The notes under the pieces are model-generated. The model made no database searches. It was not told the origin of the DNA and saw only the letters and a list, made by a program, of their open reading frames with translations. Shown here one piece after another: positions 11,993 to 27,623 of a stretch of 64,000 nucleotides of DNA. Position numbers and translations under genes: made by a program. Source of the DNA: Promethearchaeia archaeon. GTDB taxonomy: Archaea; Asgardarchaeota; Lokiarchaeia; Sigyniarchaeales; SOKP01. Numbering within the stretch: position 1 is the first letter of the stretch; each line of letters begins with the position of its first letter. The stretch is from NCBI GenBank assembly GCA_029856145.1, contig JAHQWK010000004.1, forward strand, positions 128,001 to 192,000, written 5' to 3'.

Positions 11993-14503
11993 TTAAGATT
12001 GTCTTTCTAATTCATCAATTTCAGCTAATAGATCTAATTTCTTTTCTTTCCATTCATTTCTCATCTTGATATCACAAAAACAGGTATGGATTGCTCTCTC
12101 TCCTTTTTGTAGACTATCCTTAGCTAAATCAAACTTACCAATTTCTTTATAGCATTTTGCCATCTGAATATATGTATTATAAGTAAACCAACCCAATGGA
12201 TCAAGATCTAATGCCTTTTGAAAGTATTTTAATGCCTCTTCATACTCGCCAAATTCAGTGAGAACTTCACCGTAAGAATCATGATAATTACCATTATCAG
12301 GCGCAAGTTTTACTAATTCCTTTGCTGCTTGCAATGATTCTTCTTTCTCATCACGATAATGATGCCAGTATACTTTATTATTTAATATATCAAAATCCTT
12401 AGGATTTTTTTCCCATAAAACATCAATAATCTCTAAGCCTTTATCATAGTTATTCCTCTTCTTATATAGAAATGCCTTATGCGTCATAAGCTTAGTTTCC
12501 ATTTCTGGAAACGCTTTTATCCCCTCATCGATGGCTGCCAAAGCTTCATCAATCTTCTCATCGCTAGCTAAAATATCATATTTCATAAAGTGTAAATGGA
12601 GATCCTTAGGATCAAGCTCAATAGCAGTTTCAATCATTTCAAAACCCTCTTCATATTTTTCTAATTGTTTTAAAATTAGACCCTTAAAATGATAATACTT
12701 CGCTTTGTTCTTGTCAATATCCTCTAGCGAAATTGCCTTATCGAGATCATGCAACACTTCATCCACTCTCATATCATCCATATCTAATTGGTAAACAATT
12801 TTATAGCCCCAAATTAACGCTCTTGTAACATAGGATAAAGGATGGTCAGAATAATATTCATTTAGTATGTCACTGATTTTAAGTGCCTCATCGAATTCAG
12901 CTAATGTTATATGACAATAAACCTTAATAAAATTATAAGGTACAAAAATTTCCTCATCTTTTCTATTTGGATAGCTCTTTAATGCATTTTTCAAAAATTT
13001 AATAGCCCTTTTATGCCTGTTTGATAAACTTAACACAATTGCTTTCAAGAACAGAAAATCCAAATTATCAGGATTATTTTCAATCTCAGAATTGATCTTA
13101 TCTAAAACATTATCAAAATCCTTTTTTTTCATTAAATGTTTGGCATCATTAAACATCTCCTCAATTTCTGGTGAAGAAAAAAATGGTAGCACCCTTAATA
13201 TTGAATAATCTACATAATACTTGAATTGAGTTTGTTCCGAATCATCAGACTGGGAGCTATTAGATTGAAATACTTCTGGAATATCTCTCCACATTACTCC
13301 TTCTAATTTATCACGGGTATCCTCTAGCTTTCTTTCAGTTTCTATTCTATAAGCTAAATGTTTGATGTATTCCGGTAGAAACTCTCTTAAAGTATCTTTT
13401 AGCTCATCATTAAATAAATTATTACAAATCTCGTCTAAAATCGCATTAACTGTAAAACTGAAATCCATTGAAGCACCTCTACTAAGATTACTTTCATACA
13501 ATTTATTTAAGTAAGTAAATTTTGTAATGTGATCTTCAGTTATTGCTGAAAGAACTTTCTCTATCTTTTCATCCTCCTGGAAATAATAAAATTTATCCTC
13601 ATCAACTTCTATATTAAAAAATTTGGTCGAGTAGATATTTTTCTCTATAATTTGACGAATATTAAATTTCAATTCCAATGAATTAATTTGATATTTCTTA
13701 GAAAAATCAGCAGGTGAAATGTAAAAGGGATACTGATTTGGATGATTCATAGACAGAAACAGTAACACTTTGTTAAAATCTTCCTCTGAATCTAAGGATC
13801 CTCTTAAATTAGCATAAGGTAGTTTCAAAACATTGTTTAAAAATCGAAACTTGATATCCTCATCCTGGATATCATATTTTTCAAAAAATATAATTGTACT
13901 TTTCGTGATTTCCTCGATTCTCTTGCTTTCCTCATTCAATATTGATTGTCGGTCTAAATCATATAACTTCAACATCCGAGAATATTCCGATTTCCCCTTT
14001 TTAGTAATTCTGTATTCCTTATTCTCTTTTCTAATAAATTCCATCTGTTGAAGCTCATTTAGATTTTTCGATAAACTGGATTGATTAATCCTTAGTGGAT
14101 CATCAATAAAATCTGACCATTTGCAAAATGTATTATTATAAACCATCCAAAGGAGCCAATGATCATAATTTCGGTCGTTTGTTATCGCTTTTGGAGGATA
14201 ATTTAAATTTCTTTCTCCGTCCTTAGCTTTTGATAGATGGTTGTATCGTTCCGTACCTTTAGAGGTTATTCTATATACTCCTCTTTCCGGCTTTTCAACA
14301 TATTCGTTCACCTTTAACGAGTTCAGGTAATAGGATAAAGTAGATTGAGGAATACTTACGGGTTCATCTAAGAAATTTGCCCATTCAACAATCTCATTAT
14401 TTTTTAACATCCATAGTATAACATGTTCTATATTTGGTCGCTCAATCCCTATTTGCCGAAAGATTTCTTCAGGTGGATAATTTATTTCTTGAGTTCTACT
14501 CAT
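11993..14503 (-). CDS. Tandem winged-helix plus TPR regulator, paralog 1
   Basis: Two N-terminal YPP...LWM..NN...W..F...QS.LS..L..L...Y.IT.KG repeats; C-terminal TPRs; start set at MSRT by comparison with paralog 2. Confidence 0.85.
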   Translation of the reverse strand: MSRTQEINYPPEEIFRQIGIERPNIEHVILWMLKNNEIVEWANFLDEPVSIPQSTLSYYLNSLKVNEYVEKPERGVYRITSKGTERYNHLSKAKDGERNLNYPPKAITNDRNYDHWLLWMVYNNTFCKWSDFIDDPLRINQSSLSKNLNELQQMEFIRKENKEYRITKKGKSEYSRMLKLYDLDRQSILNEESKRIEEITKSTIIFFEKYDIQDEDIKFRFLNNVLKLPYANLRGSLDSEEDFNKVLLFLSMNHPNQYPFYISPADFSKKYQINSLELKFNIRQIIEKNIYSTKFFNIEVDEDKFYYFQEDEKIEKVLSAITEDHITKFTYLNKLYESNLSRGASMDFSFTVNAILDEICNNLFNDELKDTLREFLPEYIKHLAYRIETERKLEDTRDKLEGVMWRDIPEVFQSNSSQSDDSEQTQFKYYVDYSILRVLPFFSSPEIEEMFNDAKHLMKKKDFDNVLDKINSEIENNPDNLDFLFLKAIVLSLSNRHKRAIKFLKNALKSYPNRKDEEIFVPYNFIKVYCHITLAEFDEALKISDILNEYYSDHPLSYVTRALIWGYKIVYQLDMDDMRVDEVLHDLDKAISLEDIDKNKAKYYHFKGLILKQLEKYEEGFEMIETAIELDPKDLHLHFMKYDILASDEKIDEALAAIDEGIKAFPEMETKLMTHKAFLYKKRNNYDKGLEIIDVLWEKNPKDFDILNNKVYWHHYRDEKEESLQAAKELVKLAPDNGNYHDSYGEVLTEFGEYEEALKYFQKALDLDPLGWFTYNTYIQMAKCYKEIGKFDLAKDSLQKGERAIHTCFCDIKMRNEWKEKKLDLLAEIDELERQS

Positions 14504-14561: not shown

Positions 14562-14635
14562 CGTGTTCAGTATAAAATTAGAACTCCAACTGAACTTCGA
14601 ATTACAATTGAACTTTCACGAATAAAACTATATAT
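14562..14635 (+). promoter_or_regulatory. Operator boxes plus TATA, site A
   Basis: GAACTCCA-AC-TGAACTTC (14581-14598) and GAATTACA-AT-TGAACTTT (14599-14616), then 11 nt, then CTATATAT (14628-14635). Confidence 0.75.
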
Positions 14636-14701
14636 TGAACTACAAACTTATGAGTATTAAGAAAAAAACAAATAAAAAAAACAAATAAGAGGTAAAAAAT
14701 A

Positions 14702-14779
14702 ATGAAAAAAATCGCAGAAAAAATAATTATAATAAAAAGTGGTACTTCAGCGTATAATCGAACTTATATTAGTTATTAA
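14702..14779 (+). CDS. Micro-peptide 1, 25 aa: MKKIAEKIIIIKSGTSAYNRTYISY
   Basis: GAGGT RBS at 14689-14693, first RBS-preceded ORF after promoter A, followed by a T-tract, homologous to 22685..22768. Confidence 0.75.
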   Translation: MKKIAEKIIIIKSGTSAYNRTYISY

Positions 14780-14872
14780 ATATTAAAAATTTTTTTTTTA
14801 TTTTTATGAAAAATAATCTATTGAACAATTTACGATAATTAACCGTTATTATATGATCACTAAGAGAAAACT

Positions 14873-14931
14873 CTTTTCCATCTCCATATTGAATATGTTT
14901 ATACGAGTTCGGGCGAGACTCTGACTCGCCC
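14873..14931. other. Conserved pyrimidine motif plus GC hairpin, copy 1
   Basis: CTTTTCCATCTCCATATT, then GGGCGAG-actctga-CTCGCCC. Confidence 0.6.
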
Positions 14932-14962: not shown

Positions 14963-15169
14963 ATGGATATAAAAAATACAAGAATGGTTGGAAAACATCA
15001 TTGTCCTGAGTGTAATTGTATGTATATTAGAATTGATAATGAAATTATTTCTTGTCCTGGATGTGAACTATCTTCAAAAGGTAATAGATCGATCATCAAT
15101 GAAGAAGAATGCCAGGAAAGAATTAGTTCAATTTCAGATTTAAACTTCAATAAAAGTTCATGTTCTTAA
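14963..15169 (+). CDS. Small zinc-finger protein
   Basis: CPECNC...CPGC; AGGTTGA RBS. Confidence 0.7.
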   Translation: MDIKNTRMVGKHHCPECNCMYIRIDNEIISCPGCELSSKGNRSIINEEECQERISSISDLNFNKSSCS

Positions 15170-15234
15170 TCTATAAATAAAAAAAGTAATTTAAATATAA
15201 TAAAAAAGAAAATCAATTAAATAGGTAATTACAA

Positions 15235-16548
15235 ATGGAAGTAAAAAGCACAAAAAAATCTTATTGGCACTATATGTATTTCTTGATTGGACAACAATTC
15301 TCAATGTTAGGCTCAATGATAGTTGGTTTTGTAATAACTTGGTGGATGGCCGGTAACGTTATTTTTCTTTCAATTTCAGTGTTTTTAATGTTTCTCCCGC
15401 AAATTATTGTGACTCCACTTTCAGGTGTACTTTCGGATAGATGGAATAAAAAGGCAATAATTGCAATATCAGATTCTGGTCAAGCAGCTGCAACTCTTTT
15501 ACTGTTTGTATTTTTTCTTTTCGACATCCAAAACATCGTTTTTGTTCTCGCAATAAATACATTTAGAGCAGCATTATTTGCATTTCAACTACCAGCTGTT
15601 CAGTCTTTAGTCCCTATTATGATCCCTAAAAAAAGTCTAAGCAGGGTTAATGGAATGAACTTTTTGAGTACTGGAGTTATTTTCACTATGGGACCAATGA
15701 TAGCGGCAGGTCTTATGGCTATTTTTCCACAAACAGAACTGATCTTTCTTCTCGATATTATAACATTCCTGATTGCTATGGTCCCATTGTTAATTATCAA
15801 AATTCCTAAAGTACACCAAACTACAGAAGAAGCCGTAAAAAAGTCAATGTTTAAGGATTTCAAAACGGGACTATTAACAATCAAAATGATTCCGGGATTA
15901 TTTGCTATGATTGCTTTCGCAATGGTATGGAATTTTATTAACAGACCTTGGGCTGTTTTGCTACCTAATTTTATTTATGATACTCACGGAGGTACTGCCT
16001 TAAATCTTGCGTTATTAATGACTGTGAGTCAAGTTGGGAACATAATAGGATCTCTAATCACCTCACTTAAGAAAACGTGGAAGCATAAAATTAAAATAAA
16101 CATAATTGGAGGAGCAATATTTTTTGTATGTCAAATCCCCGCGATTCTTGCACCTCAAGGAAATTTCATTATTATGATGATATCTCTATTTCCTGCATGG
16201 GTGATTTTTCCAATTACAGTATCTACGTATTTAGCAATATTACAGACGGTTGTTTCGAAAGATAAAATTGGTAGAATTATGTCGATTGATCACATGATAT
16301 CTATGGCAATTGCTCCAATTGGAGCACTTATATCCGGGCCATTAGCATTATTAATAGGAATAAGATATTTATTTCTAATCGCTGCAATCCTTGGAGTAAT
16401 TCATCCGTTTATCATTTGGGGTTTCACGAAAATAAGACAACTTGAAGTTATAGAAAGAGAAATAGTAATGAAAGCAGATGAAGTTGCCGAAGTAGAAGAA
16501 ATCACAGAGCTTACTGAAGTTATTCAAGTTATTGAACCAATAGAATAA
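15235..16548 (+). CDS. MFS exporter (MefA/DHA3-like)
   Basis: GQQFSMLGS, GVLSDRWNKK motif A, about 12 TM helices. Confidence 0.9.
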   Translation: MEVKSTKKSYWHYMYFLIGQQFSMLGSMIVGFVITWWMAGNVIFLSISVFLMFLPQIIVTPLSGVLSDRWNKKAIIAISDSGQAAATLLLFVFFLFDIQNIVFVLAINTFRAALFAFQLPAVQSLVPIMIPKKSLSRVNGMNFLSTGVIFTMGPMIAAGLMAIFPQTELIFLLDIITFLIAMVPLLIIKIPKVHQTTEEAVKKSMFKDFKTGLLTIKMIPGLFAMIAFAMVWNFINRPWAVLLPNFIYDTHGGTALNLALLMTVSQVGNIIGSLITSLKKTWKHKIKINIIGGAIFFVCQIPAILAPQGNFIIMMISLFPAWVIFPITVSTYLAILQTVVSKDKIGRIMSIDHMISMAIAPIGALISGPLALLIGIRYLFLIAAILGVIHPFIIWGFTKIRQLEVIEREIVMKADEVAEVEEITELTEVIQVIEPIE

Positions 16549-16612: not shown

Positions 16613-16668
16613 CCAGTTCATAATAAAGTATGAACTTCATATGAAGTCCGAATCAATAGTCTATATAT
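16613..16668 (+). promoter_or_regulatory. Operator box plus TATA, site B
   Basis: GAACTTCA-TA-TGAAGTCC (16632-16649), 11 nt, CTATATAT (16661-16668). Confidence 0.8.
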
Positions 16669-16801
16669 GAATTGAAAATCTAATAAGAATAAAGAATTTT
16701 AGGTTCAAAATTCGAATCATGTAGGAATAGGCTCCTACACTGAAGAAATGTAGCCTGTCATATTCCAATATTATTAATATCAATTAAAAGAGTGGTTTAA
16801 A

Positions 16802-17746
16802 TTGTCTGAAAAATCAGAAATCGAAAAAATATTAAAAGAACGCTCTAAATTTGAAGGTCTGGAAACATCAAATTCCGAATTTGTATTTATTGATAAAGTT
16901 GTTCAAGATTATGCACCAGAAATTGCTTTTTTATATCAATTTAGGGAGGACGAATCAGAAGAACAACAGATAAAAACAGGACGCCTTCATGAAAATCGCA
17001 TCTTAGGCATAATTCTAAAATTCTATTTAGAAGGAAAGAATAAGATCACTACTGGAGAAGTAGAACAGGAATATAAAAGATATTTTAGGGAAATTGCTCG
17101 ATCAACTACTTCAACATATTTAAATATGTTAAAGAAAGAATCTACTCTCTATACAGAAAGAGATGGTAGAGTAGCTTATTATATCTTTTATGAAGATCCT
17201 CCCGTTGATATTAAACCTTTTTGGTTTACTAGAATCTTTTGTATAGTTCCAGCTTACTTTAATAGAGCAATGAAATTTTCTAGTTTATACTTTAACGCTG
17301 AGAAATTTATCCAACAGTATATCAATGATATGGGTTATGGAGATAAAGAAATTTTAATAAGAAATTTCAAATTTATTATCGGTTTAATTGTATTAAATAT
17401 TTTGAAGAATCGAAGCTCTAAATGTATTGGTTGTCAGTTTAGTAAGAGGGAAATTTATAAGAAACTGGAAGAATTGATTAATGTAGCTATTAAAGATAGG
17501 TCTGATGTTTTACCAGGAGAATTATCGGTAGATTTGATTGAAAAGCATTCAGAAATACCAATATTTAAAGGAACTAATATTAAAGAAGATGAATTTAAAG
17601 GAAATATTATTAAGGAGATAGTAAGGAGCGCTGATATATTCAAAAAAGATTTAGATTTTCAAATTATGGTATCATCTCGAAGAAAAGATTCAAGATTAAA
17701 GCAAATACAAGCTTTAGAAGAAGACAGTGCAAAATTATCTTATTAA
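16802..17746 (+). CDS. Putative winged-helix DNA-binding protein
   Basis: ITTGEVEQEY...IARSTTSTYLNMLKKE..L...RDGRVAYY. Confidence 0.65.
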   Translation: MSEKSEIEKILKERSKFEGLETSNSEFVFIDKVVQDYAPEIAFLYQFREDESEEQQIKTGRLHENRILGIILKFYLEGKNKITTGEVEQEYKRYFREIARSTTSTYLNMLKKESTLYTERDGRVAYYIFYEDPPVDIKPFWFTRIFCIVPAYFNRAMKFSSLYFNAEKFIQQYINDMGYGDKEILIRNFKFIIGLIVLNILKNRSSKCIGCQFSKREIYKKLEELINVAIKDRSDVLPGELSVDLIEKHSEIPIFKGTNIKEDEFKGNIIKEIVRSADIFKKDLDFQIMVSSRRKDSRLKQIQALEEDSAKLSY

Positions 17747-18858: not shown

Positions 18859-19521
18859 TTAGAACATAAAAATTACCTTGAAAGGGAGATCTTCCAATAA
18901 TTCTCTTAGTTCTTTTTTAAATTCTTCCGAAATGGGTTCAAAACCATCTAGAGTATAATTACTTACCGAATAATGATCTGGCATAACATCTAATAAGAAC
19001 TCCTTTAATTTTTCCACATTTATAACGGTATCATTTAACCCTTTCAAAAACATTGTGTAGATGCCCAACTTCCCCTTAAATTTTTTACTGAATTTCAAAA
19101 TGCCCTCTAAAACATTTTTAGGTTCTATCGATTCCGGACACTTATTAATTTTTGAAAAATGAAAGTGATCAACAGTATTAAGATTAATAGCAACCAAATC
19201 ACATCCGTTAAATACATTTCGAGCTTCCTTATCTTGAAAGATTCCACAATTTAAATAAATACCAATTTTTTGATTTGGATATATCGTCCTAATCATTTTT
19301 GTAATCAACTTAAAATTTGAATGGGTTATTGAATCTGTTATTCCCTTAAACCATATTAAACTGGGAATCCCTCGAACATTAATACAATCTCTAATTTCAT
19401 AAAAAACTTCTTCAGTAAGGTTAATTAGGCCTGAGCCTTCACAGTAAGAACTAAAATCAACTGATAAAAGTGTTCCAAAATTAAAATTAAACTCGAACGC
19501 TTTTACAAACCTGTAACCCAT
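18859..19521 (-). CDS. Radical-SAM-fold protein lacking CxxxCxxC
   Basis: 'DLVAINLNTVD...FSKINK', 'TMFLKGLND' resemble radical-SAM barrel motifs. Confidence 0.55.
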   Translation of the reverse strand: MGYRFVKAFEFNFNFGTLLSVDFSSYCEGSGLINLTEEVFYEIRDCINVRGIPSLIWFKGITDSITHSNFKLITKMIRTIYPNQKIGIYLNCGIFQDKEARNVFNGCDLVAINLNTVDHFHFSKINKCPESIEPKNVLEGILKFSKKFKGKLGIYTMFLKGLNDTVINVEKLKEFLLDVMPDHYSVSNYTLDGFEPISEEFKKELRELLEDLPFKVIFMF

Positions 19522-19547
19522 TTAAACCACATTTTTTATTTGCATTA

Positions 19548-22505
19548 TTAATTATTTTTTAATTCGTCTATCAATACCTTGATTTCAGAAATCAATATCT
19601 CCGCTTTTCGTAGATAATCCTCTCTTTCACTCGGATGCATCTTTTCTGTAAATTTTTTCCCTTTTTCATAATACTCGAGTGCGTTTTCAAATTTACCAAG
19701 TTCTTTAAAACATCTTCCCATTTTTAAGCATGTCTCGAATGCAAACCAACCAGTAGGTTCAAGATTCAAAGCTTCTTTTAATTTTTCAATAGCATCTTCG
19801 TACTCTCCTAAGGACATTAATATTTCACCATATGTATCATAAACGTTTCCATAATTTGGATTAAGACTTATCAGATATTCTGCAGTCTCAATAGCTTCCT
19901 TTCTTCTCCCTAAATACCCTAATATTATGGCTTTATTGTTAATAATATTAGTATCTTGTGGGTTTAATTCAAGGGCTTTATCAACAGCTTCTAAACCTTC
20001 ATCATACTGTTTTAGATGTACATAGATAAACGATTTTTGTAAGAGAAGACTTCTTTTCAAGGAGGGGTGGCTTTCTAACAAGTCATCAATCAAATTCAAA
20101 GCTTCAGATTCTCTCTTGGACATAATCAAATTGTATGTTTTCCTAGCATATAAAGAATTCAATCCGGGAACCAATTCAATAGCCTTATCAATAGATTCAA
20201 TAGCTTCATCATGTTTTCCAAGTCCATTAAAAACGTATGCTTGAAATAAAAGATATCTTGTTTTATCATATGTAAAAGGGTCAAAAGAGATTGTAAGTTT
20301 TATTAATTCAGTAAAAGTATCAATATTTGGTTCTTTTAATGTAAATCTATAAATCAAATTATAACCAAGTACAATGGCTTTTGTGATAAATGAAATTGGA
20401 TGATCAGGATAAAGAGTTAAAACTAGATTTGCAATTTCTAAAGCTTTTTCAAATTTCCCTCTTGCTAAATATGAGTATGCTAAAATAAAATAAGCTTCTG
20501 TATCAATTCCAGGATTCTTTTTAAGGGTATTTATATCGATTTCACTTGTTATCAGTTGCTTCGCCTCTTTATATTTATAAATCTCACAATAGTAGAGACT
20601 TCTCAAAAGTAGAATTTCTTTATCGTTTGGTTTCAAGGCGATTAATTGATTTATAACATCTAAGGGATCATTATAATCCTTTACCAATGTCATCCAATGA
20701 GTAATATAAATTATGAATTTTGTTTTTAATAGAAGAGTATTATCTGGATATTGAGATAATGACTCGTTAATAAGATGGAGTGCTTTTTCTCCTTGAAACA
20801 TTCTCAACAATATTTGAGCTTTATGACTAATTAAAACAACATTAGATGATTTCTTTAGTCCTTTTTCAACATTTTCTAAAGATCTCTCATAATTGTCCAT
20901 TAAAAAGTAAGTTAATGATTGCAATAAATATCCAATATACTCCTCTGGATATTTCTCAATAATTTCATTAGTTATATCAATTGAATCATCTAATTTATTA
21001 TTCGCTGTTGTTATAATATCTTTTATAATTAACTGATTAATGGTTTTTAACTTTGTGCTATTATTCTGATATAGTTCCCTCGCTTTAGAAGCTTTATTTC
21101 TGTATAATGTTTTTACAATTTTTTTAAATAGATCTATTTTATTCAGATAATAAGTCTCCTGAACTTCTTTTGAGTTCACAAAATACAATTTTGTTAGGTG
21201 CATAATACTTAGTACGCTAAAAATACTACCATCTAAGGTATAATGATACTCATCCTCATCTCCTGCTATTGGTTTTGAAGGTTCAAAAGTTTGGAATTCC
21301 TCAAAAATATTTTGCCAAACAAATCCTTCTAATTTTGCTTCGCTATCAACTAATTTTTTCTCAGTCTCAAATTTATATGCTAAATATTTAATATATTCAG
21401 GTAAAAATGATTTTAATGAGGGCTTCAGATGTTCATGGAATAATTTATCACAAATACCATCTAAAATTTCATCTAATAACAATCCTACATCTATCGTCAG
21501 GGCTTCATGAAATTTGTTTAGATATGTAAATTTAATGATATGTTTTTCCACAATCGCATTAAGAACTTTCTCAATTGTCTCATTCTTTTGAAAATAATAA
21601 ATCCCTCCTTGTTCATCTTCTACTTTAAAAAACTTAATATCAAAAAATTCATTATCTACAATCTCTCCTATATAATAATCTAACGTAGTTTTGTCAACTT
21701 TATACTTTAATGAGAATTCTTGAGGTGAAATGAATTCGGGATAATTATCTGGATGATTAATCGAAAGGAACAACAAAATTTTATTAAAGATTTCCTCGTT
21801 TTTTAACATTGGCTCTACTTTAGAATAAGAAAACTTTAAAATATGATCAAGATATCGAAATTTCAATTCATCATCTTCAATTTTATATTTCTTGAAAAAC
21901 ATTCTAGTTTTTTCTGTTATTTCTTCAATTCTCTTACTTTCTTGTTCTAATATAGATTGACGATCCAAATCGTAAGACTTTAATATTCTTAAATACTCAT
22001 TCTTTCCCAAGGGTGTTATTATATATTCCTTGTTTTCTCTTGCTACGAATCCATCATCTATTAATGAATTTAAATTGTTAGATAAGGAGGATTGATTAAT
22101 CGATAGTGGCTCTTGTTTAAAATCTGACCATTTGCATGAATAATTATTATAAAGCATCCACAAAATCCAATGATCATAATTCCTAATTTTAGTTATTGTT
22201 TTTGGTGGATACTTTAATCTCCTCTTTCCTAATTTCTTGTCATAGACTAATTCACTAAATCTATCTCTCCCTTGTGCTGTAATTAGATACTTGCCTTTTT
22301 CAGGTTTTTCAATATAATCCTTATTCATTAGTTTATTCAAATTACCTGATAATGTTGAAGGACTTATTTCTACCTCAAAATCCGACCACTCACAAATATC
22401 ATTATTACTGAGCATCCATAGTATTACATATTCAAAATCAGTTTTTCCCATTATTGGATTTAATATCTCTCCTGGAGGATATATGATTCCTTCTGATCTA
22501 CTCAT
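19548..22505 (-). CDS. Tandem winged-helix plus TPR regulator, paralog 2
   Basis: Collinear with 11993..14503 (RNYDHW.LWM.YNN..CKWSDF, YDLDRQSIL..ESKRIEEIT, P.GWF); longer TPR region. Confidence 0.85.
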   Translation of the reverse strand: MSRSEGIIYPPGEILNPIMGKTDFEYVILWMLSNNDICEWSDFEVEISPSTLSGNLNKLMNKDYIEKPEKGKYLITAQGRDRFSELVYDKKLGKRRLKYPPKTITKIRNYDHWILWMLYNNYSCKWSDFKQEPLSINQSSLSNNLNSLIDDGFVARENKEYIITPLGKNEYLRILKSYDLDRQSILEQESKRIEEITEKTRMFFKKYKIEDDELKFRYLDHILKFSYSKVEPMLKNEEIFNKILLFLSINHPDNYPEFISPQEFSLKYKVDKTTLDYYIGEIVDNEFFDIKFFKVEDEQGGIYYFQKNETIEKVLNAIVEKHIIKFTYLNKFHEALTIDVGLLLDEILDGICDKLFHEHLKPSLKSFLPEYIKYLAYKFETEKKLVDSEAKLEGFVWQNIFEEFQTFEPSKPIAGDEDEYHYTLDGSIFSVLSIMHLTKLYFVNSKEVQETYYLNKIDLFKKIVKTLYRNKASKARELYQNNSTKLKTINQLIIKDIITTANNKLDDSIDITNEIIEKYPEEYIGYLLQSLTYFLMDNYERSLENVEKGLKKSSNVVLISHKAQILLRMFQGEKALHLINESLSQYPDNTLLLKTKFIIYITHWMTLVKDYNDPLDVINQLIALKPNDKEILLLRSLYYCEIYKYKEAKQLITSEIDINTLKKNPGIDTEAYFILAYSYLARGKFEKALEIANLVLTLYPDHPISFITKAIVLGYNLIYRFTLKEPNIDTFTELIKLTISFDPFTYDKTRYLLFQAYVFNGLGKHDEAIESIDKAIELVPGLNSLYARKTYNLIMSKRESEALNLIDDLLESHPSLKRSLLLQKSFIYVHLKQYDEGLEAVDKALELNPQDTNIINNKAIILGYLGRRKEAIETAEYLISLNPNYGNVYDTYGEILMSLGEYEDAIEKLKEALNLEPTGWFAFETCLKMGRCFKELGKFENALEYYEKGKKFTEKMHPSEREDYLRKAEILISEIKVLIDELKNN

Positions 22506-22573: not shown

Positions 22574-22629
22574 TCACTTCAGACTAAAGTGTGAACTTCA
22601 TGTGAAGTTCGAAGTGCGAATCTATATAT
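22574..22629 (+). promoter_or_regulatory. Operator box plus TATA, site C
   Basis: Perfect GAACTTCA-TG-TGAAGTTC (22593-22610), 11 nt, CTATATAT (22622-22629). Confidence 0.85.
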
Positions 22630-22684
22630 TGGAGTTCAAGTTAAATAATCATAAGAAAAAAATGAAAAAAAAGTGATAAAAAAG

Positions 22685-22768
22685 ATGGTTCAAGTATTAG
22701 AAAAGAAGTCGAGGTTGATAATTATAACGAATGATACGGACAGATATCATTCGAGATATATAACTTAG
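22685..22768 (+). CDS. Micro-peptide 2, 27 aa: MVQVLEKKSRLIIITNDTDRYHSRYIT
   Basis: AGTGA RBS, first RBS-preceded ORF after promoter C, T-tract after the stop, homologous to peptide 1. Confidence 0.75.
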   Translation: MVQVLEKKSRLIIITNDTDRYHSRYIT

Positions 22769-22814
22769 TAAAACTTTTTTTTTCCTATTTATATCAAAAT
22801 GGAGAGTGAAAAAT

Positions 22815-22955
22815 ATGGTTAAAATAATGATAAATTGTAGAAAATGTGGTAAAGAGATAAAACTTGACCTGAACGACTCGACGGCGCTTTGCCGAAAGTG
22901 TCGGAAGAATCATGCTGTAATTGAGGTAACAACAACGAGGAATTTTGATTTTTAA
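22815..22955 (+). CDS. Micro zinc-finger protein, 46 aa
   Basis: MVKIMINCRKCGKEIKLDLNDSTALCRKCRKNHAVIEVTTTRNFDF; GGAGAGTGA RBS. Confidence 0.8.
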   Translation: MVKIMINCRKCGKEIKLDLNDSTALCRKCRKNHAVIEVTTTRNFDF

Positions 22956-23017
22956 TGAAAATAATAGAGAATAATAAAAAATTAAATAGAAAATGAAAAA
23001 ATAAAAGAGGGACAAAT

Positions 23018-23116
23018 ATGCCAAAAAAAATAAGGATACCCTGTATGAAATGTGGTAAAGAGATAAAGTTAAATTTTACCGAATCACGGGCAATTTGTAA
23101 GGATTGTGGAAGGTAA
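23018..23116 (+). CDS. Micro zinc-finger protein, 32 aa, paralog of 22815..22955
   Basis: MPKKIRIPCMKCGKEIKLNFTESRAICKDCGR; GAGGGA RBS. Confidence 0.8.
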   Translation: MPKKIRIPCMKCGKEIKLNFTESRAICKDCGR

Positions 23117-23196
23117 ATTTCGAGAGATTTTTTAAATCTTTCAAATTTTTTAATTGTTTAATTATTTAATTTTTTAATTTTTTTTACGGTTCTTTT

Positions 23197-23245
23197 CTTT
23201 TCCATTCCAAATTAAGGGGCGAGAGTTTATCTCACCCTTTAATTT
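23197..23245. other. Conserved pyrimidine motif plus GC hairpin, copy 2
   Basis: CTTTTCCATTCC, then AAATTAAGGGGCGAG-agtttat-CTCACCCTTTAATTT. Confidence 0.6.
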
Positions 23246-23975: not shown

Positions 23976-25757
23976 ATGAGATATAATAATGATCATAAAT
24001 TTTTGAATTCTGCAATATGCATTGCTGTTATTCTAAATATCATTGTTTTTGGGATTTTTAGTTCTGATTTATTTATATATAGATACTCTCGTCCTTATGA
24101 TTGGAGGGTGGAAGTTCTTAAAGTACCAACAACGTCCAATCCTGTTACCATGGATCCTTGCGATTCATGGGATAGTGTATCAAATGATATACTTGATCAG
24201 GTAATAGAAACCCTAATTGCATATAATTTATCTGACCCAGAATTTCCACTTGTAGGAAGACTTGCCTCAGCTTGGGATTTCCAAAGCTCAAAATTTGGGC
24301 ATAATATAACTTTCACACTAAGACCAAATGTATATTTCCATGATGATTCATTACTTACTGGAGACGATGTTTTACATTCTTTCGCAAGAATTAATTACTT
24401 CGGTAATGCAACTGGTACCTTAACAGAGCCTGATCATATGGCTTTTCCACACTCTCTCTATAAATTTCCTGGTAAGCCTCCAGGTTTAACACCAATCTTC
24501 AATCATACCTTAAGCTTTGTTAATCCAACTGATAACTTAGAAGTTACTATTGTAATGAATGGTCCATTTGCTCCTGCTGAAGGATTATTAGCCTATGTAG
24601 CAAGTGGAATTGTACCTCTTAATTGTCCTGCAGAGGATATGTGGGAACTCGGTACGGATCTAGCCATTGGAACTGGTCCATTCAAATTAGTTAGTTATGT
24701 ACCAAATTCAGAGACTAGATTTGAGCGTTGGGATAGATATTGGGATGCTCCCGCTTATTGGGATGAAATTGTCTATGTCTATTATAGAGATGCTGTCACC
24801 GCTAATAATGCTATGTTGGCTGGAGATATTGACTACTTAGGCCAGGGTATTGCTGCACTAAAAGAATACTTTAATGCGAGTCCTTATATCACGGTAACTG
24901 GAGATGGAGTTGCTGATTTTATCAATGGTTCTATCTATTGGTATATTGCTTTTAACTCCCCTTATATAAATGTTACGTGGAGAAAAGCTATTTCATCTGC
25001 CTTTAACTATACATATCTTAACGAAGAAATAGATGAAGGCACTACTGTGAAAGCTAATTCCTTAGTTCCTCCCGGTTTTCCTGCTCATAATGCTTCATGT
25101 AAAGGTGGTGTTTTTAATATACCTTATGCTAGACTAAAAATGCAGAGCATGGGGCATGGTGTAGGATGGGACATTGGCAGTCAGGTTGGAGATATATTTA
25201 CTCCTGGTCTTGATGAAGCTCTATGGAAAGCAGCCGCATGGGTTCCAGATGTAGGTAACTTTACTGCAAATCAGTTTAATTTCCGGTTTAGACAAGGAAG
25301 TCATTGGATGGAACTCCTAATTGCTCAATTTCGAGATGATATGGACAGGATTGGAATTGAAATTAACGTGCAAATATTGACTTGGTGTGAATTCATAGAA
25401 ATGGGTGAAGGCTATCCTGACAGACTCCATATCTATCAAGTAGGTTGGGGTCCTGCTTACTTTGAAACCTTCACCATGATTGATCCATTAGTAAATCCCG
25501 CATCTTCATCAAACTTTGCTCGAATTGATAATCCTGAAATAAACACTTACTTAGCCCTTGCTGCTTCTGAAACCGATACTGCTACGAGATATGGATACTA
25601 TATGAAACTTCAGTATTTAATTATGGATAAATACTCTTACCATATGGGCATACAATTTGATAAGCTTTATCATGTTCATGCTGCTAATTTGAAAGGCGTC
25701 CCATATAATACTATGAGGAACTTATACTGGTATCCAACTTATCGCGAAACCGCATAA
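23976..25757 (+). CDS. ABC transporter family-5 (OppA/DppA-like) substrate-binding protein
   Basis: TMDP, LASAW, FTLRPNVYFHDD, IGTGPF, RKAISSAFN. Confidence 0.9.
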   Translation: MRYNNDHKFLNSAICIAVILNIIVFGIFSSDLFIYRYSRPYDWRVEVLKVPTTSNPVTMDPCDSWDSVSNDILDQVIETLIAYNLSDPEFPLVGRLASAWDFQSSKFGHNITFTLRPNVYFHDDSLLTGDDVLHSFARINYFGNATGTLTEPDHMAFPHSLYKFPGKPPGLTPIFNHTLSFVNPTDNLEVTIVMNGPFAPAEGLLAYVASGIVPLNCPAEDMWELGTDLAIGTGPFKLVSYVPNSETRFERWDRYWDAPAYWDEIVYVYYRDAVTANNAMLAGDIDYLGQGIAALKEYFNASPYITVTGDGVADFINGSIYWYIAFNSPYINVTWRKAISSAFNYTYLNEEIDEGTTVKANSLVPPGFPAHNASCKGGVFNIPYARLKMQSMGHGVGWDIGSQVGDIFTPGLDEALWKAAAWVPDVGNFTANQFNFRFRQGSHWMELLIAQFRDDMDRIGIEINVQILTWCEFIEMGEGYPDRLHIYQVGWGPAYFETFTMIDPLVNPASSSNFARIDNPEINTYLALAASETDTATRYGYYMKLQYLIMDKYSYHMGIQFDKLYHVHAANLKGVPYNTMRNLYWYPTYRETA

Positions 25758-25808
25758 ATGAAATATAAAGAAATATAAAAAATTAAAAAAAGAATAAAGG
25801 AAGGAAAA

Positions 25809-27623
25809 ATGAAATCTGAAATGAAAGAGTTAGCGATATTTATTTTAATAATTTTAATTATTTTTTCTGGTTTCGGAAACGTTATCATGTTACTGATGTA
25901 TAGTCCTCCGCATTCTCATCCTACTTTCGAAGTACTTAAAGTAGCAAGAACTTCAAATCCAGTTACTATGGATCCATGTGATTCTTGGGATAGTGTGTCA
26001 AATGATATGCTTGATCAGGTAATGGAAACCCTCATTGCTTATAATTTATCTGACCCAGAATTTCCGCTTGTAGGAAGACTTGCCTCAGCTTGGGACTTCC
26101 AAAGCACGCCTTTAGGCACGAATATCACATTCCAATTACGACCAAATGTATATTTCCATGATGATACATTACTTACTGGAGAATGTGTTATCCATACCTT
26201 TACAAGAATAAATTTTTTTGGCAATTGGACAGGGACATTAACTGCTCCTCATCATATGGCAGCTCCACACTCTCTTTATAAATTTGCTAATGGAACACCA
26301 ATCTTTAATGAAACGCTCAGTTTTGTTAATCTAACTAACCCATTAGAAGTTACTCTTGTATTAAATGGTCCATTTGCTCCTGCTGAAGGATTACTAGCCT
26401 ATACAGCAAGTTCAATCGTACATCCTTATTCTACTCCTGTAAATGAGATGTTAGAACTCGGCGAGGATCGAGCCATAGGGACTGGTCCATTCAGATTAGT
26501 TTATTATGTACCAAATTCAGCGATTTGGTTTGATCGTTGGAAGAGATATTGGGATGGTCCCGCATATTGGGATGAAATCGTCTATGTCTACTATAGAGAT
26601 GCTGTCACCGCTAATAATGCTATGCTGCGTGGAGATATTGACTACTTAGGTCAGGGTATTGCTGCACTAAAAGAATACTTTAATGCGAGTCCTTATATCA
26701 CGGTAACTGGAGATGGAGTTCATGATTACATCAACGGGGCTACTTATAACTGTATTGTATTTAAATCAGAATGGATCAATCGTACATGGAGAAAGGCGAT
26801 TTGTCATGCTTATAACTATTCCTATCTTATCCATAATATCATGGAAGACACAGTTGTGAGAGCTAATTCTTTAGTCCCTCCAGGTATCCCGGGTCATAAC
26901 AGTTCAGTTGTAGGTGGTACGTTCAATATTACAAAAGCAAGACAGATTATGCAGAGCATGGGTTATGGTTATACGGATAATGTTCCTTGGGACGTAGGAT
27001 CTCAGGTTGGAGATGTGTTCACCCCTGGTGCTAATGAAACTCTATGGAAAGCAGCAGAATTTATACCAAACGTAGGAAACTTCTCTGGTAATGTATGGAA
27101 TTTCTATGTAAAACCAGGAAGCCTTTTATTGGAATTTCTAACTCAACGCTTTATAGAGGATATGGATTTAATTGGAATTAAGGTAGAATATTATTGGTAC
27201 TGGTGGGCTGAATGGCCGATACCACTATGGTGGTGGAAAGGAATCCATTTATGTTGGTTGAGTAAATATCCTAATTATTATGAAGCTTTTAATATGATTG
27301 ATTCATTAGTCAACCCAGATTCTACCCTTTATTCCGAAACTTTAAATATACTTGATTCAATAGTCGACCCAGCATCTACCCTCAATATCCTTAAAATTAA
27401 CAATACAGAAATAAATACTCTTTTAGCTACTACTGTAGCTGAAACTAGTACTGCTACAAGATATGAATACTATAAGAAACTTCAATATTTAATTCATGAT
27501 AAGTACTACTACCATATGCCTCTGTTTTATGACAAGCTCTACTATGTTCATGCTGCCACCTTGAAAGGATTTCCATATAATTGTATGAGGAATTTATACT
27601 GGTATCCAACTTATCGTGATTAA
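25809..27623 (+). CDS. Family-5 substrate-binding protein, tandem paralog
   Basis: Same motifs; long near-identical DNA blocks shared with the upstream gene. Confidence 0.9.
   Translation: MKSEMKELAIFILIILIIFSGFGNVIMLLMYSPPHSHPTFEVLKVARTSNPVTMDPCDSWDSVSNDMLDQVMETLIAYNLSDPEFPLVGRLASAWDFQSTPLGTNITFQLRPNVYFHDDTLLTGECVIHTFTRINFFGNWTGTLTAPHHMAAPHSLYKFANGTPIFNETLSFVNLTNPLEVTLVLNGPFAPAEGLLAYTASSIVHPYSTPVNEMLELGEDRAIGTGPFRLVYYVPNSAIWFDRWKRYWDGPAYWDEIVYVYYRDAVTANNAMLRGDIDYLGQGIAALKEYFNASPYITVTGDGVHDYINGATYNCIVFKSEWINRTWRKAICHAYNYSYLIHNIMEDTVVRANSLVPPGIPGHNSSVVGGTFNITKARQIMQSMGYGYTDNVPWDVGSQVGDVFTPGANETLWKAAEFIPNVGNFSGNVWNFYVKPGSLLLEFLTQRFIEDMDLIGIKVEYYWYWWAEWPIPLWWWKGIHLCWLSKYPNYYEAFNMIDSLVNPDSTLYSETLNILDSIVDPASTLNILKINNTEINTLLATTVAETSTATRYEYYKKLQYLIHDKYYYHMPLFYDKLYYVHAATLKGFPYNCMRNLYWYPTYRD

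Follow-up and report, generated by a model that had tools for sequence, protein, structure and literature searches.

A tandem winged-helix/TPR regulator cassette with unannotated micro-peptide genes in a Promethearchaeia genome

Two very short ORFs in a Promethearchaeia genome lie divergently from two paralogous regulator genes, raising the question of whether they are genuine genes, whether they are related to each other and what their products might do. Both are on the forward strand of the DNA analysed here (64,000 nucleotides, hereafter the window): micro-peptide 1 (14702..14779, 25 aa) and micro-peptide 2 (22685..22768, 27 aa), with exactly the limits assigned in the initial annotation. 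At each locus, the start codons of peptide and regulator are ~180–200 nt apart. At orthologous loci, the peptide gene is found within ~0.6 kb of the regulator gene.

Two homologous micro-peptide genes

Micro-peptide 1 is preceded by the ribosome-binding site (RBS)-like motif GAGGT (14689..14693, +), 8 nt 5′ of its ATG. The corresponding GTGAT of micro-peptide 2 (22673..22677, +), inherited from a deleted upstream gene, lies 7 nt from the ATG, or 8 nt if counted from GTGA; the spacing of 8 nt described initially for both thus holds strictly for the first. As had also been noted, an oligo-T tract follows each stop codon (14790..14799 and 22775..22783, +), and the tract behind peptide 1 is terminator-like and retained in 13 of 13 orthologues. 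TATA boxes at 14626–14634 and 22620–22628 are separated from the ATG by 77 and 66 nt, respectively.

Direct comparison of the two peptides gives a score of 38 (shuffle p = 0.0004) and ranks fourth among the 22,880 small ORFs of the genome. This match by itself is suggestive, and orthologues were therefore sought. Profiles were built from the sequences of other genomes, leaving out those of the window. The peptide-2 profile recovers peptide 2 at E = 7e-14 and places peptide 1 second among the small ORFs (E = 0.004), while the peptide-1 profile recovers peptide 1 at E = 3e-10 and places peptide 2 fifth (E = 0.12). This cross-recovery bears out the homology proposed initially. Furthermore, pooled pairwise dN/dS, calculated from non-independent pairs, is 0.45 for 13 peptide-1 sequences and 0.22 for 11 peptide-2 sequences, in agreement with the earlier claim of coding selection. 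Frame, start context with RBS, and stop are kept across the 24 sequences; neither set contains a frameshift, and L002 alone ends early, at 20 aa. The IIIx[NS] codons show pN near 0, with Ile codons that differ synonymously, while four linker residues vary freely (pN 0.4–0.7) and the aromatic tail is kept inside subfamilies. Judged from these sequence comparisons, both ORFs are real, homologous genes, because the orthologue profiles, dN/dS, codon pattern and intact frames all point the same way. Chance ORFs in AT-rich DNA might have been expected from a GC content of 30% and from a pairwise match that only ranks fourth, but this reading, now of negligible probability, is refuted by the orthologue data: the low dN/dS, the preserved frame, RBS and stop, the independent profile matches and the members in other genera. 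Neither peptide has a match in Pfam.

The detailed pattern by which the two peptides had been aligned matches these two alone among the small ORFs of the genome, and is satisfied by only one of 22 orthologues. Its E6K7 pair occurs in three of the 22, its Thr is not conserved, and Y-x3-YI, previously taken as a fixed element, is limited to these two subfamilies; the element fixed across the superfamily is IIIxN. As read from the sequences, the true core runs from a basic start with IIIx[NS] through a linker of variable sequence to an aromatic tail, YNxxYISY in peptide 1. The closest relative of peptide 1 adjoins the L207 regulator and has the C-terminus GTSMYNRTYISY.

Cassette anatomy and peptide families

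In the 204 distinct regulator loci examined, the usual cassette order is a 70–90 aa gene, the micro-peptide gene, and one or two zinc-ribbon genes. The normally first gene belongs to a family of 70–92 aa proteins (L004:2302-2547 and ~65 other loci) with an acidic start, a basic middle and the end YNAKYxEE...YRNYGIY. Pfam and the ESM Atlas gave no match for this family, and nothing useful was found in the Atlas for its 82-aa gene. DNA alignment reveals that the upstream gene is absent at both window loci. Its deletion at locus 1 spared the RBS of peptide 1 itself. The deletion at locus 2 preserved the reading frame and fused MVQVLE (22685–22702), the start of the lost 70–77 aa gene, to KKSRLIII, so that peptide 2 is a chimera and the E6K7 match is largely an accident. 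The initial annotation had placed both peptides in the same position behind the same promoter type; operator and TATA are indeed present at both, but the positions are equal because each locus independently lost its 70–90 aa gene. The window allele of peptide 2 ends in ACT TAG, as opposed to TAT TAA in orthologues, and has thereby lost the conserved terminal Tyr; in L153, a 99% identical strain, the peptide ends in YVSY. Retention of the peptide with loss of the 70–90 aa gene is seen at window locus 1, at locus 2 of the window and L153, and at L154/L087, and the reverse case at L043, L073 and L086.

Downstream of peptide 1 are a conserved RNA element (14874..14931, +), composed of TTTTCCAT(T/C)TCC and a GC hairpin, and the gene of a 68-aa CxxC/CxxC zinc-ribbon micro-protein (14963..15169, +; family 4, 12 members) that is conserved in A-type cassettes, those of the regulator A type. 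Cassette 2 contains a 46-aa zinc-ribbon gene (22815..22955, +; family 2) and its 32-aa paralogue (23018..23116, +), and ends with the same RNA element (23198..23240, +). The TTTTCCATTTCC-plus-hairpin element lies 3′ of ~30 cassettes; in this genome, no intergenic site clearly comparable to the two window cassettes was found. Rfam gave no real match to it, and covariation in the stem is modest, with both sides changed in 2 of 13 and 1 of 7 pairs.

Between the window and L153, the small-ORF cassette differs at ~8% of bases, compared with <1% over most of regulator B, and seven of the eight amino-acid changes of regulator B sit in the last TPRs. The differences cluster at window positions 22638–23172 and 19000–20000, suggesting recombination patches.

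Clustering of ~60 peptides resolves six subfamilies, all with a basic start and IIIxN; the tails are constant within subfamilies and differ between them. The family is distributed over one Promethearchaeia (Loki) family, including other genera of that family. Several operator-bearing peptide genes are orphans with no regulator within 1.5 kb, of the AGFAF type (L284, L285, L288, L301) or the HPKKY type (L290, L308), and different peptide families occur in tandem arrays in which some members have their own operator (L286, L302, L306). This genome itself encodes an orphan, MKKKENAQIIIKNVGFAFQSIAK (C15:21752-21820, −), with no regulator nearby, and a further micro-peptide, MRKNQKKPLLATGYWNTYVLLNK (C23:102758-102829, −), adjoining a 633-aa regulator; the promoters of the two are near-identical. 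A KKPL..GYWN.Y relative of the C23 peptide is present in another genus (L233/L237/L238).

A separate, strongly conserved family of 24–30 aa, LxD[FY]L[LS][NH]PK[KR]YxFGxKDL (L018, L027, L093, L099, L116, L215, L290, L308), is often found in tandem with IIIxN peptides, and this motif also forms the end of some 70-aa proteins (L218, L219). Further small families read MKKGPVCYxYY and WxCxxFCSxxCR. An operator-led, regulator-free cassette (downstream of C26 61577, −, in this genome, and in L291, L304 and L312) comprises 93-aa and 57-aa ORFs, a 19-aa IIIR[YN]D peptide and a ubiquitin-like 110-aa gene. Another cassette type (upstream of C23 98830; L029, L097, L118) begins with an ultra-short MGEMGS(S)-stop ORF and continues with a long GAGAGCTC...GAGCTCTC hairpin; it could represent a leaderless peptide or an sRNA. 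The 70–90 aa, HPKKY and IIIxN families have a Phi-N-[PA]-x-[YF] motif in common, which is enriched over shuffles, in sequences that are related, and is only a lead; it may resemble eukaryotic NPxY motifs.

Operator, regulators and neighbouring genes

Cassette 1 is preceded by the half-sites GAACTCC, GAACTTC and GAATTAC-N4-GAACTTT with TATA (14581..14634, +), and cassette 2 by a perfect palindrome, GAACTTC-ATGT-GAAGTTC, with TATA (22593..22628, +). The consensus GAACTTC-N4-GAAGTTC is common to 107 distinct promoters, ends ~9 nt before AAACTATATAT and is accompanied by additional half-sites with an 11-nt period. With a matrix of this operator, 14 genomic sites score above 20 bits, compared with 0.3 per shuffle; the matrix was trained on these loci, so that the cassette matches are circular while the others are not. 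The 14 sites include both cassettes, the peptide of the C23 regulator, the C15 orphan, the MFS gene 15235, the wHTH gene 16802, the metallo-beta-lactamase-fold gene 42102, and oxidoreductase-like, secreted and several enzyme genes. The strict pattern is present in 13 of 31 genomes, with none for the reversed control. In other genomes the same operator also lies ahead of orphan peptide genes and of tandem arrays in which some peptides have their own promoter. Both the palindrome and its spacing from TATA are conserved, and the operator is enriched over chance. Sites immediately 5′ of BRE/TATA can serve as activator positions in archaea, for example with Ptr2.

Judged by linkage, the predicted binder of the operator is the wHTH/TPR family encoded divergently. 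Regulator A (11993..14503, −; 836 aa) has two winged helices, a helical middle domain that includes a third wHTH-like unit, and ~11 TPR-like helical hairpins. Its paralogue, regulator B (19548..22505, −; 985 aa), has a longer TPR array and is 37% identical to A over 806 columns. The winged helices match HTH_34, HTH_45 and MarR. A single-sequence model reached a pLDDT of 43, and a model from a 98-row alignment (pLDDT 84) was used instead; it contains two wHTH units, the helical middle domain and a TPR superhelix. The best fold and profile matches are generic TPR proteins (OGT, APC/C, TTC7, CTPR), and RRNPP structures are absent from the top 50 Foldseek fold matches and the top 60 profile matches. 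The ESM Atlas returned generic TPR matches alone, all under 0.9. Near-invariant residues are found in the last TPRs (N856, K858, D890, G893 and E894, B numbering).

The genome contains eight regulator paralogues, one of them truncated (C12:36795-37169, −), which stops after ~105 codons and lies opposite the gene of a secreted binding protein. Of 126 genomes sampled from the same archaeal family, 100 encode such regulators, mostly in 2–10 copies, and almost no genome outside it does; relatives are mostly labelled Promethearchaeota. An IIIxN peptide is detectable within 1.1 kb of ~17 of 79 TPR regulators of 635 aa, 18 of 33 of 840 aa and 12 of 31 of 985 aa, and beside none of nine TPR-less 450-aa regulators, all nine from one clade of a FastTree phylogeny. 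Genes for peptides, secreted proteins and small GTPases can stand in for one another in the divergent slot. Opposite most 635-aa TPR regulators there is a gene for a secreted protein or a small GTPase, or no recognisable gene. At many 635-aa regulator loci (L022, L023, L065, L066, L071, L113, L193, L232 and others), the slot contains or is followed by a Ras/Rab-like small GTPase gene.

Behind cassette 1, an MFS transporter gene (15142..16548, +) with its own operator and TATA (15142–15177) is conserved in A-type loci alone. It is followed by the gene of a 314-aa wHTH-like protein (16632..17746, +) with its own operator (16632–16649), homologues of which fill the divergent slot of some B-type regulators; profile comparison detects no homology between this protein and the regulator (probability 4.6%). 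Among 61 peptide loci, the neighbours include MFS (12), OppA-like (2) and PepF-like (3) genes, and no transporter or peptidase is common to them. Two tandem family-5 solute-binding proteins, with no permease genes, are encoded at window positions 23976–27623; such a pair adjoins the cassette solely in the window and L154, and, with OppA-like genes at 2 of 61 loci, the pair does not qualify as a conserved part of the cassette. A radical-SAM-family gene (18859–19521, −) lies directly downstream of regulator B; a gene of this family is found downstream of B-type regulators at seven loci. The window copy has no CxxxCxxC, a motif that a longer homologue next to a related regulator does possess. No modifying enzyme is conserved beside the peptide family.

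Possible roles of the peptides and likeness to known systems

Our preferred reading, to which we give a probability of roughly 40%, is that both peptides are intracellular micro-proteins of a regulon. wHTH/TPR dimers would bind the operator and activate transcription, and the activated cassette would release a pulse of small basic proteins. Each peptide would dock on a cytoplasmic partner, its invariant IIIx[NS] strand joining a β-sheet edge or a groove, while the aromatic tail, fixed per subfamily, would select that partner, which need not be the neighbouring regulator. This reading is favoured because the peptides have few apolar residues, no transporter is common to the loci, the HTH class and TPR lineage differ from those of RRNPP and the pairing with regulators is loose. 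It is in line with selection centred on the strand and tail with a free linker, with operators before MFS, metallo-beta-lactamase-fold, oxidoreductase-like and secreted genes, with the interchangeable contents of the divergent slot, as expected of a target slot, and with orphans, arrays and a missing export leader. Against it stand the presence of peptides beside all three TPR-bearing size classes and not beside the TPR-less clade, and the retention of the peptide where the 70–90 aa gene was lost, although the reverse also occurs.

The same linkage can be read as a feedback loop inside the cell, a possible but doubtful explanation in which the TPR groove of the wHTH/TPR family would hold the peptide, and the peptide would thereby modulate its own operator as an amplifier or anti-activator, with orphans acting in trans. 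Peptide–regulator linkage across several genera, the absence of peptides beside TPR-less regulators and the near-invariant residues of the last TPRs speak for it; a conserved Asn is the usual TPR way of holding extended peptides. A peptide is detectable, however, at only a part of the TPR regulators, and no TPR-specific covariation was detected. Peptide divergence follows that of the TPR region (rho 0.49–0.52 in 18 A-type and 0.41–0.42 in 10 B-type loci, both small, related samples) no better than that of the N-terminal region (0.50 and 0.47). The peptides are at most candidates for the ligand with specificity positions envisaged initially; a conserved core with variable positions as a binding motif is plausible from codon-level pN. 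The L207 regulator is not the nearest relative of regulator A in any region, despite having the closest peptide. Complex prediction for TPR residues 425–985 of the L153 regulator B with the peptide, supplied as a 32-residue GTG-started ORF, scored 0.00 ('no answer') and is evidence neither way.

If the peptide instead left the cell, by the MFS or an ABC exporter in trans, was trimmed to its C-terminal part, re-imported in an OppA-type manner and activated the divergent HTH-TPR receptor, the cassette would operate as RRNPP-like quorum sensing. We consider this unlikely, as we do the corresponding idea of an independently evolved Asgard cell-to-cell network in which paralogous wHTH/TPR receptors read IIIxN peptides and orphan or arrayed genes provide cross-talk. 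The divergent layout, the length of 21–29 aa, the basic N-terminus and Ile-rich run recalling SHP, the operator-controlled MFS behind peptide 1 in 12 loci and the OppA-like genes near locus 2 are compatible with it; adjacency of the exporter PptAB, protease Eep and importer Ami is not required in streptococci (PMC7564271), and leaderless signal peptides exist (PMC10518010). SHP precursors, however, have a long hydrophobic core, an uninterrupted L/V run in SHP1358 (PMC7564271), as opposed to four to five apolar residues here, and neither a Sec leader nor the hydrophobic core of PptAB substrates is found in the window peptides. Their best 10-residue Kyte-Doolittle means are 1.3 and 0.45 (family median 0.9), giving no sign of an export leader, and the family median net charge is +4. 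A winged rather than Cro/Xre-type HTH, an OGT/APC/CTPR-like TPR array, multi-peptide arrays and orphans that misfit one-to-one pairs, and OppA-like neighbours at 2 of 61 loci also count against it. The contrast between cassette and regulator B in L153 could be counted in its favour, but the ~8% patch is explained by recombination because it also spans the zinc-ribbon genes. A cis-acting leader, in which translation of the ORF, or its basic N-terminus on the downstream hairpin, controls oligo-U read-through into the zinc-ribbon genes, would account for the T-tract behind every orthologue and the hairpin element of ~30 cassettes. It is improbable in view of orphans with no downstream gene to regulate, of an RNA element at or near the cassette 3′ end, and of selection on tail amino acids with synonymous freedom at Ile codons, which points to a function of the product. 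More improbable still is a precursor of a cationic, Tyr-rich modified or antimicrobial peptide: positive charge, aromatic tail, the MFS of A-type cassettes and the radical-SAM-family gene at seven B-type loci would agree with it, but there is no family-wide modifying enzyme, and the radical-SAM gene lies on the regulator's side, at B-type and few related loci, without CxxxCxxC in the window. Overall, the layout recalls bacterial peptide signalling, but an intracellular site of action agrees slightly better with the data.

We found no description of the peptide family or the module in the literature. The micro-peptide family is apparently genuine and unannotated, and the Asgard regulatory module apparently undescribed. 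The analysis delineates a regulator family and its probable operator, together with five or more classes of unannotated micro-proteins that the family appears to control, every part being small enough for synthesis and in vitro testing.

As in Rgg/SHP and ComR/ComS, an HTH-plus-TPR regulator adjoins the gene of a ~25-aa peptide with a basic N-terminus, the peptide promoter is plausibly regulator-controlled and several paralogous systems coexist per genome; a small propeptide-like gene next to a receptor-like gene is likewise a feature of RRNPP pairs. In RRNPP receptors, a five-TPR core bears a single N-terminal HTH (PMC12700828), whereas here two winged helices and a 250-aa middle domain precede generic OGT/CTPR-type TPRs. 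Unlike in those systems, the peptides are hydrophilic outside a strand of 4–5 residues, a cassette encodes several unrelated micro-proteins, operator-bearing orphans exist and the host is an archaeon. Homology to a five-TPR receptor with an optional N-terminal Cro/Xre-type HTH is not supported, given the winged helices and the absence of RRNPP structures among the top 50 fold and top 60 profile matches.

Arbitrium (AimR/AimP/AimX) also combines a TPR regulator, a short peptide and a structured RNA element in a single cassette. AimP has a Sec leader, however, the Arbitrium genes are co-directional, and no sequence or fold match to AimR was found. LCPs are ultrashort and themselves constitute the mature signal, while the peptides here have 21–29 aa with a basic third. 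The RopB/LCP arrangement (PMC10518010) is nevertheless similar: a very short ORF without a secretion leader has a strong RBS and is oriented divergently to the regulator gene. Ptr2/TrmB/MarR-type archaeal regulons resemble the module in their palindrome directly upstream of BRE/TATA and winged-helix regulator. Targets of archaeal regulons include CxxC-CxxC zinc-finger micro-proteins; the TPR extension and the arrays of 21–30 aa non-zinc peptides with no Pfam match set the present module apart. By the tests run, it behaves like a regulator-plus-small-protein cassette and is no RRNPP member. If the peptides are effectors, it would place a large hidden micro-proteome under one switch; if they instead bind the TPRs as ligands, archaea would have a counterpart of the Firmicute RRNPP systems that arose by convergence.
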